From Octopus vulgaris (Eukaryota), in assembly GCA_951406725.2 (NCBI GenBank), contig OX597816.1, forward strand, positions 38,626,001 to 38,690,000: 64,000 bases of DNA. Reading direction: 5' to 3'. Positions 1,422 through 37,569 of the stretch are shown piece after piece; within the stretch, counting starts at the first letter, position 1; every line of letters starts with the position of its first letter. A model generated the notes under the pieces. It was given only the letters and a program-made list of their open reading frames with translations, was not told where the DNA came from and searched no databases. The position numbers and the translations under genes were made by a program.

Positions 1422-2165
1422 GTATATATATATAATGTGTGTGTATATGTCAATACATTAAATTCTTTAAAATTATATGCACACAAATTATTTACAATAT
1501 GTGGAAATAATTCTATGAAGTATAAGAAATAAAAAAAAAGGAAAGATGAAAGAAAGAAGAAAAGAAAAAGAGAGATGATAGAAGGAAGTGTCTATAGCCT
1601 TATTATGTGACTAACATGGTCAACTGGTGATAATGTTACAATTAATATTTAATCTAAATTGTAAAAGATCAATAATTGGGACAGTAATTTTAGAGTGTTG
1701 ATCATTTTATTCTCAATATTAATACTAAGTCAGTCCTAATTGAGAAGATATTTGATCAAAGATATTCAAGCAGGACCAAGCCAACTTGATTTTTTTTCAA
1801 ACACAATGTATATAGAACTATATTATGCAATTATCCTATTATTATACAGGGTATGATCTGAAGGAGATCAGTTTCTAGAGCTACCAAGTCAAGTGACCCA
1901 ATAGAGGCTTGTGGTTGTTATTGTTGCTCTGCTCCAGGTCAGTCTTGATATGACAAACCTATAATCAAAGGAACCCCAGTTATAACCCTTCCATTTTTAA
2001 AATTCAGACTGTGTATGTAGAACTACATTATTCAATATGCTTTAGAAAAAAGATTGTAAGGGCAGCCTTGCAAACACTACTTGGATGCACAGTGGATTGC
2101 TTGAGTGTCTTGAAAAACATGTAATTCACAATTTTGTTATACGAGTATGACTAGTGAGATATAAT

Positions 2166-2372
2166 GATTTCATATTTTGGTACAAGGCCAGTAATTTCAG
2201 TTACATTACATTGACCCCCGCCCCCAAGTGTTCAACTGGTACTTATTTCATTGACCCCAAAAGGATGAAAGGCAAAGTCAACTTTGGCAGAATTTTAACT
2301 CAGAACATAAAGCCGGACAAAATGTCACTAAGCCTTTTGCCTGGAGTGCTAACGATTCTGCCAGCTTGCCTC
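2166..2372 (-). mobile_element. tRNA-derived SINE with conserved central domain (gcctttcatcct...gataaa..aagtaccag)
   Basis: Homologous to 11148-11362, 32535-32750 and the arrays at 35130-35915 and 45420-46275; the minus strand starts ggcaagctggcagaatcgttagc (A-box-like) and has gagtt(c)aaattc (B-box-like). Confidence 0.8.
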
Positions 2373-2790
2373 TTTTGATTAAGTAATAGCTTTAAATAAA
2401 ATATTTAAAAAAAAAAAACTTTCCATGCAAAGAGTGCCAGATTTGAGAGAGATGTGACTGCTGTCTGCAGCAAGTTGAACATCCATGTAGAGCTTCATAC
2501 ACATGATCAAAGAAGTATGAATGTAACTAACCATTTGTCCATTTATTTAACTTGAATTGCATGGAGAATTATTTGGAGAGAGGCATTTTATGACTGGATG
2601 CCCTTCCTGTCACCAAACCTACCATTGCAAGTATGAAAACAGTATTCCACTACAACTATTATATATTCAGATTTCCCTCACTAAACTTTACAATCTCTAT
2701 AAAACACACAAAAACCTACAAACAGTTCAATTAGAATTAAATCTTAACACCAAATCCTTTGGGCTCACCTCATCTCTCTCAGTAAAGTTT

Positions 2791-3083
2791 GCGTGGCCGT
2801 TGCCAGTGCCGCCCCAACTGGCCTCTGTGTCGGTGGCACATAAAAAGCACCATCCGATCGTGGCCGTTTGCCAGCCTCATCTGGCACCTGTACTGGTGGC
2901 ACGTAAAAAGCACCCACTACACTCACAGAGTGGTTCGCGTTAGGAAGGGCATCCAGCCGTAGAAACATTGCCAGATCAGATTGGGCCTTGTGCAGCCTTC
3001 TGGCTTCCCAGACCCCAGTTGAACCGTACAACCCATGCTAGCATGGAAAGCGGACGTTAAACGATGATGATGAATGATGATGA
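2791..3083 (+). mobile_element. RTE-tailed SINE with internal duplication of ggtggcac(g/a)taaaaagcacc
   Basis: Near-identical to 4186-4401 and 63709-63950; ends ggacgttaaacgatgatgatga. Confidence 0.85.
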
Positions 3084-4185
3084 TTTGAGCAAAACTCTTC
3101 ATAGGTAAGAAAGAATTTTCTTCAATGTTTATATATTAGGCTCAACAAAACTTTTCTTTTTCTAAATAAGAGGCTTGTTTAAAAAAAACAGTACTCAAAC
3201 TTCTCAGCAGCAAAGAAACTTATCAAAATTTGCAAACTTTACTAATTGATTTTTTGCTGACACAGTCCACCAATAATTTCCTCCTACTCTGGTTGGTATT
3301 TCCTAATATAAGATTGTTGCTAATTTATCTTAGCCTTATAAAATTTTAATACAACTTATGAAATTCTTTTCATTTGAAAATGTCTGCCAAAATTCCACGT
3401 ACCTCAAACAAACTGTTATTTTAACCCATTTATTATGGAAAACTATTAAAACTACAAAACAACTACTATTATCTTAACCTAGTTACAACTGTGAATTATA
3501 TACACTAATATCACCAACAAATAAACAACCTGTAAATCTGCACCATTTATAAAAAAGAGTTCTTTATTCGTCATTATCATGTTTGTAGTTTTACTAAACT
3601 GAATCTTATCTAAATTACTCAACATACTGAATTGCTCAAGACTGGGGCCATTCTGTGTCATTACGTCAACCTCAACACTTATTTTCACTCTCATAAGAAC
3701 AAAAAAAACAAAGTAAACCTTGGAGCAAAAGGATATAACCAAGATAGAACCAAATAACACGGGGAACATTTCTGAGGCACAAGTCCTCCACTTTTCATCA
3801 ATATGTGCATATTACACATAAATGCATCCAGGGGCCTTCTAGACAATTTTTGTCCTCTAGATTTAGCTCACAAGACTTTGGTCAGACGAAATCTTTAACA
3901 TGCGGCAGACAAGCTAAATGTTTTACAATACTTAATATCTTCATGTTCTGAAGTTAAATCCTGGCAAAGCTGAAGTTGTTTTCGGGATTCAAAGGGTGAA
4001 TGAAATACATACCAGACGCGTACTATGGTTGAGTTAATCAATTATGCCCTTCTCATATAAGTGTCATAAGACACTGTGCCTATGTAAAATAATCAAGATT
4101 AGGAAAAAGTTTGAAACGAGCAATAAGCACAGAATTCTAGATGTTGAGGGGACTATAAGACAGACTATAACCACAGACAGCTTGA

Positions 4186-4398
4186 AAAAGCACCATCCGA
4201 TCGCTCGTCTGGCACCTGTGCCGGTGGTACGTAAAAAGCACCCACTACACTCATGGAGTGGTTGGCGTTAGGAAGGGCATCCAGCCGTCGAAACATTGCC
4301 AGGTCAGACTGGGCCTGGTGCAGCCTTCTGGCTTCCCAGACCCCAGTTGAACCATCCAACCCATGCTAGCATGGAAAGCGGATGCTAAATGATGATGA

Positions 4399-4401
<3 letters not shown>
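4186..4401 (+). mobile_element. RTE-tailed SINE
   Basis: Matches the 3' part of 2791-3083; (GAT)n tail runs into (AT)n. Confidence 0.85.
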
Positions 4402-4445
<44 letters not shown>

Positions 4446-4467
4446 TGTATATGTGTACATATAAGTA

Positions 4468-4524
<57 letters not shown>

Positions 4525-4692
4525 CACAATTTATTTGTGATCAGGGGTGTTCCTAAACCGAGGTACTAGGTACTACTGCATAAAATGAATAGAAGGACAG
4601 GAGATAAAGCATGATATATTCGAGATGAGAAGTGTTCAAAAAGTGAGGTACTACTTTACATGTATATATATGTATATGTGTGTACATATATA

Positions 4693-4740
<48 letters not shown>

Positions 4741-4776
4741 AATGTACATACTTACATATATACATATATATATATA

Positions 4777-5416
4777 TGCATATGTGGGCACAGGATGTCA
4801 TGAAACATGTACAACAAAAAATTACAAAGTACGAGTACATGGAATATGAACTATTTTTTCGAACGAAGGGCACAAATGGAAAACAGGACAACATAAAGAA
4901 TGACCCTTCATCAGTTATTAGTTGTTTTTCTACTCTCGTCTTTCGAGCATTTAACAACAATATATGCTTTCAATGAAACGGTTTCTCCCGCAAAGCAAAT
5001 TAAATAAAATTTGGGATTTTGCGGAGGGTCAAAATTGGTAATACAAACAGGACAGTGAAAACAAACAGGAAGGGCTGCTAAACCTAAACAAGGTTGCGGT
5101 GGCGAATGTGTAAATCAAGCTTGGACAGGACACAGACAAGAACACGTCTTTCTTGTCCCAGGTACAACGGAAAGAAAGAAAGAAACACAAGTTAGGAGAA
5201 GAAAGAAAGACGACCAATGGTCACGTGGGAGCCATGTGAGCAAGGGAGAAGGAGTGAGGGAGAGAGAGTGACAGAGTAATGGAATAGAATAGTGGGAGAA
5301 GAGGAGGTAAAAGAATAAGAGAGAGAAAGAGAGAAAAACGAAAGTGTAAAAAGATCATATAGAGTGCAAATCAGAATTAAGATAAAACTTACTTGGAAGA
5401 GGATGTGTGGTGTTCA

Positions 5417-9545: not shown

Positions 9546-10185
9546 CAGGTCATCCCATAAGTTCTGTCCCAATTTTGAATAAAGAAAACAAGTGATCACA
9601 TGTTATATTTAATTGAAATTTAATCATCAATGTACTTTCCCTGATTATCTATGACTTCCTTCCATCTACTTACAAGCTTTTTAATCCCATCAATGTAAAA
9701 CTCTTTTGGTTTCAAAGTGAAGAACTCTGAAATGTCAGTTTTGACCTCCTCCTGGCTTGCAAAAGTTATGTCACCCAAATGATTCTGTAAACTACAAAAC
9801 AAATGGTAGTCTCAAGGAGCAAGATCGGGAGAATAAGGTGGATGAGGAGTTTTTTCCCAACCAAGCTCTTCAATCTTCTGTGATGTGATCTTTGCAGTGT
9901 GGGGTCGCGCATTGTCCTGATGAAACATCACAGCTTTTCAATTCACTAAAGCGGGTCTTTTTCTTCAAAGCTTGGTTCAAATGCTCTAATTGCTGACAAT
10001 AGACTCGAGCACCAATTGTTGCATTAGGTGGTAATAATTCAAAGTGAATTACTCCTTTGCAATCCCACCAGATAGAGAGAAGAACCTTTTCTCCATGAAG
10101 TTCCCATCTCAGTGGTGGTTCAGCTTTTTCCCTTTTACCAAACAACTGTTTACGATGTTTAACATTTCGATAGAAGATCCTGTAC
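9546..10185 (-). mobile_element. Decayed mariner (DD34D) transposon, 3' half
   Basis: LHGEKVLLSIWWDCKGVIHFELL, FHQDNA.PH, SPDLAP*DYHLFCSLQNHL, FYIDGIKKLVSRWKEVIDNQGKYIDD; end ta|tcaggtcatcccataagttc. Confidence 0.92.
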
Positions 10186-10344
10186 TTGATGTATTTTATA
10201 TAGATATATAAATAGACACACACATAAATACATATATTTTGTTTCGAATTTGTGTGAATGTGTATAGAATAATATATCAGTTGTATGAAATTAAAACATG
10301 GTCTGGCTTTCACGTTTTTATTATGAATGGGTTTTTCCATGGCT

Positions 10345-10582
10345 ATATATAAGAATCTCTTCCAGGGGCGAATGGGTTATTCCCTTGGTTTTTGAAATAA
10401 AATAGATGTGTATTAGGATCCCTTCCAGGGTCCCTATTATTGCTTTTTTTCAACAATCTGAGTACGCCATGAGGTTTCCAGACATGCGTCAAGTTTCATC
10501 AAAATTGATAAAACGATGTAGGAGGGGTTAGCTAACAACTCCACAAACACACCCAGACAGAATTTCCCACATATGTAGTAGA
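10345..10582 (-). mobile_element. Probable Helitron-like non-autonomous element, 5' portion
   Basis: Minus strand begins a|tctactacatat...tctgtctgggtgtg (TC start after A), with a gtcaagtttcatcaaaat motif typical of short Helitron derivatives; no 3' CTRR end found. Confidence 0.45.
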
Positions 10583-35915: not shown

Positions 35916-37105
35916 GAACTATATTATGGTAAGCATTCTGGTAAGCCATGCTTAGCTTCAGCTCCAGAAAATTTATAAATAAACTGATGTTTCACCCTGA
36001 AATTCACTGTTTCTTGTTGATTTTTGAATGATGGTGGGGAGTAAGTGATCCACTAACTGCTTATGAGTTCCTTTTGATATAAAGTTTCCATTTCTTGGGA
36101 GACTTTCCAATATAATCTTTGCATCAAATGGAAAACTGTTTTCCTTTCAATTTTTCATCATAGATTCAAAATAATCTTCAAGGGAAGAAGGTACATCAAT
36201 GAATGAAGAGGAGAGAGAAAAGAGAGTAACATTAATATTATGAGGGAGCAGGAGAGAAAAACGGTAAGCAGTGTTGCTGTTGAAAGAAGTGAATCTGTAT
36301 GGTTTGATCGCGAAGCAGACAATGGAATCAACAACATGGACAATATTGACAAATTTCCATCTTTATCAACAAGCCACATCCCAAAATTTAGACCTTTACA
36401 ACCATCAACCTAATCACTTCATGCACCACCATTGACACCATTCGCTTTGGCCTCTGGAAACACTACCATGACCACCACCAAAAACAACAACGGCACACAA
36501 CAACTCCAGCAGCATGAGCTGCAGAAAAATAAACAACCACGATAACACCGACAACAACAGTAGCAGGGGTGATAAGCAGTGCAAACCAAGGATGAGTTAT
36601 TCCACAACAACTACCTTCATAAGCAGGACATGTTGGGCATGCAGATAAGTGTCCTTTGAGTTCAACAATTCAGGGAATCAACTACACCCACAACCTACAG
36701 ATCCACTTTTTATTCCTGGTATGAACTTGGTGGATACAGAAAGCTTATCGTGATGTGGAGAATATGAATCCATCACAAAAGACATGATTGAAGGGGGACA
36801 ATAGGGAGACAACACTTGAATTAGTGGTGAGGGTGACTGGCTTTGTGGAGTTTCCATGAGTAGCCTTTAGAAGCCCCTATCTTTGGGGGAATTATTACTG
36901 AAATTTATGTAGCTTATTCTTTTCTTTATGTACTCTTTCTTATAATCCCACATTGGGGATAGTATAGAACAATAGTTCTATACTATCCCTAATGTTTTCA
37001 TGAACCCTTAGTGGTTAATAAGGACATTAATATTTATTTATTTAGCAACACACTATTACAGATAAAGAGATTCTCCTGTGTCATTTTTTGAAGATCAGTG
37101 GTATC

Positions 37106-37318
37106 ACAGTTCTATATATTTAAAAGATGAGAAATTATGTACATTATTTACATTTGACAGATATTTGTCCTCATTTTGTTTGTTGTTAACACAACGTTTC
37201 GGCTGATATACTCTTCAGCCTTCATCAGGTGTCCTGATGAAGGCTGGAGAGTATATCAGCCGAAACGTGTTAACAACAAACAAGATGAGGACAAATATCC
37301 GTCAAATGTAAATAATGT
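37106..37318. mobile_element. Palindromic Penelope-like retro-insert with 12-bp target-site duplication
   Basis: Inverted arms 37140-37229 and 37233-37319; direct repeat atcagtggtatc at 37094-37105 and 37319-37330. Confidence 0.85.
37188..37233 (-). ncRNA. Minimal type I hammerhead ribozyme
   Basis: Minus strand: GACAC-CUGAUGA-A-GGCUG(aagaguauau)CAGCC-GAAAC-GUU^GUGUU; stem I GACAC/GUGUU, stem II GGCUG/CAGCC; stem III replaced by the palindrome AACGUU. Confidence 0.8.
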
Positions 37319-37569
37319 ATCAGTGGTATCCATCAACATGTGATCAATTAGATCGTTTTCTTTACGAGGAAGGAAAGTTGATTATATTCACCCGAGTGCT
37401 TCACAGGTACTTATTTGTTGAACCTTAGACATTTGAAAACACAGCAATTGGAACTCAGAACAACCAAGGTCATAACTGAATACTACAGAAATGCTTTTTG
37501 TCTGATGTTCTAATAGTTCTGCCACTCTATTGCTCAATATTTACTCATTCATTCATGCATGCATGCATA

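Follow-up and report, generated by a model that had tools for sequence, protein, structure and literature searches.

Inverted insertions of pLTR sequences have been described for the Penelope and Poseidon elements, namely for Pen2a of Adineta (PMC3846280) and for Poseidon of Anolis (PMC11167929), with a general scheme in PMC8557442, as far as the accessible text of these papers goes. The available portions of PMC8557442 and PMC11167929 treat the origin of the inverted ends as an open question, and the latter reports that cleavage is dispensable for insertion in vitro. Opposed minimal hammerheads on the two strands, 100-700 bp apart, are described for Schistosoma in the accessible part of PMC4209133 (Cervera and de la Pena 2014). 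Non-LTR retrozymes (PMC7229834; bioRxiv 10.64898/2026.07.22.740005) are, in the portions of those sources at hand, head-to-tail tandem repeats with mostly canonical ribozymes that are expressed as circles.

The locus considered here lies in a 64,000-nt stretch of Octopus vulgaris DNA, which was analysed whole and is called the window below. It is a known kind of Penelope-like element (PLE) insertion; the tRNA-derived head found in the pLTR of its family is a new feature. We consider it very likely that the unit is a head-to-head pair of 5'-truncated PLE pLTR copies flanked by a 12-bp duplication and probably written in one insertion by an RT-endonuclease, a reading carried by the observed family identity, full-length parent, arm asymmetry, TSDs, variable centres and common subfamily marker.

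The palindrome and its hammerhead cores

The initial annotation described a palindromic mobile unit of about 210 bp with hammerhead cores on both strands. The features assigned to the locus are the following:

37094-37105, left copy of the TSD, 12 bp, an exact direct repeat
37106-37233, minus strand, long arm, a 5'-truncated pLTR copy covering family positions about 157-282, with 93% identity to the majority sequence of the family
37106-37139, minus strand, PLE 'tail', a 34-bp 3' extension on the long arm only, family positions 251-282 with a 2-nt insertion here
37188-37233, minus strand, predicted complete minimal type I hammerhead: stem I of 5 bp, CUGAUGA, an extra A, stem II of 6 bp, GAAA, palindromic ACGU
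37226-37237, junction at which the arms meet head to head and overlap by 1 nt, located on a small imperfect hairpin pre-existing in the pLTR
37233-37319, plus strand, short arm, a pLTR copy without the tail covering family positions 161-250, 96% identical to the family majority sequence
37234-37271, plus strand, defective hammerhead core with a 3-nt deletion at the predicted cleavage site and stem I absent
37319-37330, right copy of the TSD, whose first base doubles as the short-arm end

A near-perfect palindrome of about 180 bp is indeed present. Its inverted arms occupy 37140-37319 (180 bp) around a 3-nt loop at 37230-37232, its segments are complementary at 96% and 87%, and the minus-strand RNA has a predicted minimum free energy of -137.7 kcal/mol (z -21.2), which none of 200 shuffles equalled. 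A correction to the annotation is the 34-bp tail of the minus arm, which is unpaired. The 30-40-bp tail in the accessible text of PMC11167929 and PMC3846280 is a match for this tail.

The CUGANGA...GAAAC cores lie at 37196-37228 (minus strand) and 37234-37266 (plus strand); the loose core pattern alone is not rare, with two matches in 12 of 100 shuffles. On the minus strand the annotated complete minimal hammerhead holds up in folding: stems I and II form in the isolated 46-mer 37188-37233 (z -3.67), with 6 bp in stem II and not the 5 bp first given, and the predicted cut after GUU, between 37193 and 37192, follows from reading the sequence. The plus core was rightly described as lacking stem I and the 3 nt after GAAAC (z -0.47), and because these 3 nt are missing from the plus arm the base at its cleavage position is G. 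Hammerhead cleavage triplets obey the NUH rule. The plus strand fails it, leaving the minus strand as the only one with all the sequence and stem features of a hammerhead, and the plus core cannot serve as a dimer partner. A dimeric hammerhead fold reaches -25.1 kcal/mol versus -13.4 for the monomer, while the lowest-energy fold of the dimer (-31.0) is a different one. An Rfam search, offered as a check in the annotation, gave no match of the unit to the hammerhead or tRNA models and just generic hairpin models below the cut-off; such motifs were likewise found with a custom descriptor, according to the accessible part of PMC4209133.

The annotation further proposed that a discrete palindromic retrozyme moves as a unit and, inside a host intron, switches between dsRNA and self-cleavage. 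In favour of this model stand the confirmed palindrome, TSD and single complete core, together with one head-to-tail array of pLTR units of about 215 bp at another place in the genome and the abundance of the family sequence among RNA reads from a related organism (9,400 and 7,744 reads). Against these points, a read-through minus-strand RNA would have the complement transcribed ahead of the ribozyme, and stem II in this RNA is predicted at a probability of about 1e-20 and stem I at about 1e-34, versus 0.99 in the isolated 46-mer; there is no known trigger for a switch. The same RNA reads have no pile-up of ends at the cut site, a weak test with fragmented libraries. Hammerhead core positions, the CpG of ACGU included, decay like the remaining sequence, and the one frequent non-CpG core variant, T166A, falls at the free position 7. 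The intron was not established either: a Pfam scan of 133 of the 206 candidate open frames identified no host gene and matched only a piece of a mariner transposase (9873-10376, minus strand, PF01359, E 2.9e-22).

The centre of the palindrome also speaks against a discrete unit. The 21-nt junction motif of the window occurs three times in the genome, and the other two occurrences (L361 and L363) are single arms, so that among these three sites the window alone has both arms around the exact junction. One further locus, represented by the duplicate pair L014/L017, has the window's centre with mismatches. A paralogue search with the unique right flank returned short repeat matches away from the junction and none reaching it. 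As centres vary among copies, the model of a retrozyme switch is largely refuted, and we regard it as highly improbable. The window locus itself is an ordinary dead transposon stub. Its hammerhead would be a passenger of the pLTR, predicted silent here, where it is buried in the hairpin; in the parent, cutting would require a second copy and probably protein too.

In the single arms L361 and L363 (both at 1500-1521), a perfect 9-bp inverted repeat stands in place of the imperfect hairpin upstream of the core, which suggests that template switching may take place at the spot of the window's junction. A separate hairpin with 21-bp arms and a 4-nt loop lies at 36950-36995, 100 bp left of the unit. 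Metagenome scans for relatives returned none and then nine distant loci, of no use for stem covariation.

A decayed Penelope-like family

Judged by sequence, both window arms are 5'-truncated pLTR copies of a decayed PLE that is old and abundant. In the surveyed genome (2.8 Gb, 227 contigs), the unit as query gave 4,405 candidates, of which 40 were scored. Exact family motifs number 2,686 in intact form and 332, as 30-mers, with the 3-nt deletion, and the T166A variant has 1,089 exact matches. Allowing any gap fill in the motif, there are at least 5,146 arms, a high copy number; a rough extrapolation from 3/37 and 2/90 gives 33,000-120,000. The loci sampled below were the first-listed exact matches on contigs 1-4 or the top BLAST matches, which biases them towards well-kept copies. 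Arms diverge by 4-6% at non-CpG sites.

More than 20 loci run upstream from the repeat into coding sequence whose translation is the end of a PLE protein, with a motif that we take to be of the GIY-YIG type. A direct Pfam scan of three stop-free pieces of this ORF matched no family. Twelve homologues were found among 163 candidates; all 12 contain PF26215 and nine contain RVT_1 (PF00078), and the best nine of the twelve are 57-65% identical to the family ORF. The ORF would thus encode an RT with a C-terminal GIY-YIG domain, an assignment that leans on the homologues and known motifs. No zinc-finger linker between RT and EN is visible in the family translations; the family may belong to the Penelope/Poseidon clade, which lacks one. 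One full-length copy (L301, about 2.7 kb) has the order pLTR-RT-GIY-YIG-pLTR with direct pLTRs. Its reading frame begins with an ATG in the pLTR and continues through hammerhead and tail, which places the hammerhead within the first codons of the PLE reading frame. The earlier idea of mobilisation by a PLE protein is supported. A separate non-coding retrozyme is not, since the sequence belongs to the pLTR of a PLE that has an ORF. No intact ORF was found among the 150 scored of 6,943 candidates, and as their longest open frame has 569 aa, the family looks dead.

Other, younger PLE families, found by a genome search with the Pfam GIY-YIG domain, were rejected as partners, with no shared sequence in the 30 loci compared. 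One unrelated family (L081-L089 and L098; e.g., L084:468-1904 and 1826-4168, plus strand) is young and has many open 781-aa RT and GIY-YIG frames. Canonical PLEs have one ORF; this family has an overlapping open frame of up to 479 aa ahead, without a clear Pfam family. A pattern search revealed no convincing hammerhead at its ends.

Inverted pairs and the deletion at the predicted cut site

Ninety-four motif-selected loci were fetched for a census of pairs, and 91 were left after three duplicates had been dropped. Head-to-head inverted pairs make up 51 of the 91 and the other 40 are not such pairs, which bears out the association of PLE-type minimal hammerheads with inverted partial copies that the annotation mentions. 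The pairing is asymmetric: 47 of the 51 pairs are long+short, with a tail of about 32 nt on one arm, and none is long+long. In a larger set (n=112) the counts are 100 long+short, 7 short+short and 5 long+long. The 3' ends cluster at family positions 247-256 and 279-282. The exact direct repeat of the window is a real TSD by the standard of the family, in which 36/51 pairs have a TSD of at least 10 bp, versus 5/300 control (shuffled) pairings. Targets have an AT content of 75% against a background of 61%. The palindrome centre differs among copies and the 5' reach may be longer in either arm; nine pair centres contain a GCCC-NN-GGGC mini-palindrome. Between a fifth and a quarter of long arms, approximately, have a 9-nt in-frame duplication (family positions 236-251) where short arms end. 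Some RT-related loci (L090:1621-2386 and 4018-4783; L346:1-122 and 1428-1549) have 100% identical inverted copies in a similar layout and are recent insertions.

The long inverted repeat and the TSD could also be expected of a MITE or fold-back DNA transposon. The ends are asymmetric, though, the 5' ends vary and an inverted pair is missing at 40/91 loci. The continuity of the sequence with an RT-endonuclease ORF refutes this origin, and we give it practically no credence.

The two arms of a pair resemble each other in their subfamily marker. T166A is present in both arms of nine pairs, in one arm of three and in neither arm of 63, and because nine of the 12 carrying pairs have it in both, the arms are taken to come from one source. 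Position 166 agrees in 35 of the 38 informative cases (7/10 of those with an A) among 51 pairs selected for the 3-nt deletion. In the insertion we propose, the GIY-YIG endonuclease would cut AT-rich DNA with a stagger of about 12 bp, and reverse transcription would be initiated at internal positions of the RNA: one end would use the distal site and the other a site about 32 nt further in. Synthesis of both strands would stop early, and the two would then be joined head to head at a microhomology, which at the window would be the small stem I hairpin, so that both arms would derive from one source element. Either the whole PLE RNA or a short one that begins at the tRNA-derived head would have served as the template; the window copy is too truncated to tell.

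The 3-nt deletion of the window's plus core recurs in the family. It is found in 8 of the first 100 matches, in 14/129 unselected arms and in 25/178 arms. Among 44 pairs selected for the deletion, both arms have it in nine, the partner is intact in 29 and the partner has another indel in six; a smaller comparison gave p 0.014. Sharing in 9/44 exceeds the background of about 11%; as an in-frame change, the deletion could have been present in some sources. It shows no linkage to T166A (16/77 vs 35/226, p 0.29), and this, together with its sharing in only 9/44 pairs, led us to reject a pure subfamily mark. It is mostly arm-specific and possibly a scar of hammerhead cleavage: an RT jump across the cut, with the cDNA end pairing with the GU just upstream, would yield a 3-nt deletion. 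Simple slippage is a rival to such a jump. A general indel hot spot at the cut site beyond the 3-nt deletion was not shown, other indels there being no higher than at other repeat-like spots, and truncation at the site was not convincing as a sign of cleavage, with only 4/73 arms stopping at 194-204. In the literature, as far as accessible text goes, we found nothing on point about a cleavage-site scar.

The pairs might instead arise by snap-back and not by twin priming. The long-arm cDNA would fold at the small hairpin and copy itself to about position 250, later deletions in the unstable palindrome would vary the centre, and the 3-nt deletion would be DNA-level slippage unrelated to the ribozyme. 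Junctions on natural mini-palindromes (at the window, and GCCC-NN-GGGC in nine centres) fit this course, as do T166A common to both arms and the non-3-nt indels at the cut site (18/178), which are not above those in a C run (22/160) or in the AAC repeat (19/187); the accessible part of PMC3846280 also argues for self-priming. Post-insertion events would however be needed for the further 5' reach of either arm and for the deletion in the long arm alone (16/44 pairs). The deletion, moreover, is present in 25/178 arms with just 2 nt of microhomology, as against 10 events of 3-nt deletion in the AAC repeat (203-212), and focal arms with the deletion have diverged as much as intact ones (4.2% vs 4.0%). 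We hold snap-back in this full form to be a serious alternative with somewhat less than an even chance. Two primed cDNAs and a single cDNA that folds back on itself cannot be told apart with these data.

The loci L125-L130 (G000:C2:2734243-2736003) form the head-to-tail array of about 215-bp pLTR units, which run from the AAT repeat to the tail, with a short inverted arm ahead. Seven units have the 3-nt cut-site deletion; the layout is retrozyme-like, with mostly defective ribozymes.

The tRNA-derived head and comparison with known systems

Read 5' to 3', the family pLTR opens with a GCCC-AC-GGGC mini-palindrome and a 73-nt head; an AAT repeat and a linker follow, and then the hammerhead and the tail. 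The tRNA-derived head is absent from the window copy. Aligned without gaps to the genome's own tRNA-Arg(ACG) gene, the head is identical at 45/73 positions (shuffles: mean 18.8, maximum 33). The gene was located with a pattern built partly from the head, and in the first 33 nt, which lie outside the pattern, 20 are identical against a shuffle maximum of 18. ARAGORN called no tRNA in 14 loci and the Rfam tRNA model no longer calls the head either.

The 5' ends were sampled in 73 arms of 70 loci, chosen with a motif that lies downstream of the ribozyme; duplicates and arms close to a locus edge were dropped. Thirty-four of the 73 arms extend to head positions 1-20, and by eye from the printed flanks 23 of these stop there and 11 continue towards the ORF. 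Another 15 ends are scattered over positions 101-214, and 17 arms are lost in the AAT repeat. The pile-up at the head fits a short Pol III RNA or a fold-back at the mini-palindrome.

These observations raise the question of where the short copies come from. The tRNA-Arg-derived head could be a Pol III promoter for an RNA of about 290 nt (head, AAT repeat, hammerhead and tail) that is copied in trans by the PLE protein, in other words a PLE-dependent SINE. The alignment to tRNA-Arg(ACG), 45/73, speaks for it, as do A-box and B-box motifs that look intact against the consensus though the tRNA is no longer callable, and the 23/73 arms ending at head positions 1-20 versus 15 over 101-214. The sense strand is also free of runs of four T, but the ORF strand likewise has none in 1,838 nt, so that this character does not discriminate and was dropped as evidence of Pol III. 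At the six positions checked, head-start arms have no private subfamily markers (T166A is present in 26/113 head-start arms and in 3/31 ORF-linked arms). Their start coincides with the GCCC-AC-GGGC mini-palindrome, a possible fold-back hot spot, and 17/73 arms cannot be traced across the AAT repeat. We rate the chances of a PLE-dependent SINE as evenly balanced. It is compatible with the paired insertion preferred above and alters the template only; many of the short copies may well have spread in the manner of SINEs, as passengers. The accessible literature yielded neither a PLE-dependent tRNA SINE nor a tRNA-bearing pLTR; Repbase, Dfam, SINEBase and subscription papers were outside the search, and the family may be catalogued there.

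A bolder account joins these strands. A Penelope element would have captured a tRNA-Arg-derived Pol III promoter in its pLTR and spawned a Penelope-mobilised hammerhead SINE; RT would start at two places 32 nt apart on RNA from one source; and the arm-specific deletion would be an RT jump over the ribozyme cut by GU microhomology, that is, cleavage in vivo during transposition. Taken whole, this account is speculative and rather unlikely. Two leads from this family can be tested: mobilisation of a SINE by a PLE, and a scar that cleavage may have left. Minimal PLE hammerheads cut poorly in vitro, and a cleavage scar, if the deletion is one, would attest to their activity in vivo. In host transcripts, pairs of this kind would also readily supply dsRNA. 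The thousands of short paired insertions are a natural data set on how PLEs make inverted ends, and their strict long+short pairing exceeds the in-vitro result, in which there was no strand difference in start site according to the accessible text (PMC8557442/PMC11167929).

The closest systems, as they appear in the accessible portions of the sources cited here, are the Penelope and Poseidon elements. Shared with them are the head-to-head inverted 5'-truncated copy, the 30-40-bp tail on one arm, the TSD and the junction palindrome, as well as a pLTR that overlaps the ORF start, two fixed 3' ends and AT-rich targets. The TSD is mostly 10-15 bp here versus 8-10 bp in the rotifer Penelope examples. 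The octopus pLTR further differs in holding a tRNA-Arg-derived segment and an AAT repeat, and most sampled copies consist of the pLTR only. An ORF link, direct pLTRs, an inverted copy with a tail and a TSD, as in EN+ PLEs, were all found.

The hammerhead resembles the minimal PLE hammerheads of PMC4209133, as described in the accessible part, in the extra base between 9 and 10.1, in G10.1-C11.1, in the palindromic 15.2-16.2 without loop 3 and in a long stem II and short stem I. In contrast to the motifs there, the two cores abut here, and the recurrent 3-nt cut-site deletion is not seen in the text available. Like non-LTR retrozymes (PMC7229834; bioRxiv 10.64898/2026.07.22.740005, in the portions at hand), the unit is short, PLE-related and has a type I hammerhead and a TSD of more than 4 bp. 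Unlike them, it consists of two arms placed head to head, its ribozyme is minimal and one of its cores is dead; head-to-tail units each with a complete ribozyme are not present at the window locus. Finally, as far as the accessible sources describe them, LINE-sharing tRNA SINEs and Helenus, with a tRNA inside its LTRs (PMC10886601), have a similar order of an A/B-box head followed by the partner's 3' recognition region; the octopus OR2 is a CORE SINE with a different body (PMC4758252). In the family described here, the partner is instead a PLE, an autonomous element that has the head within its own pLTR.
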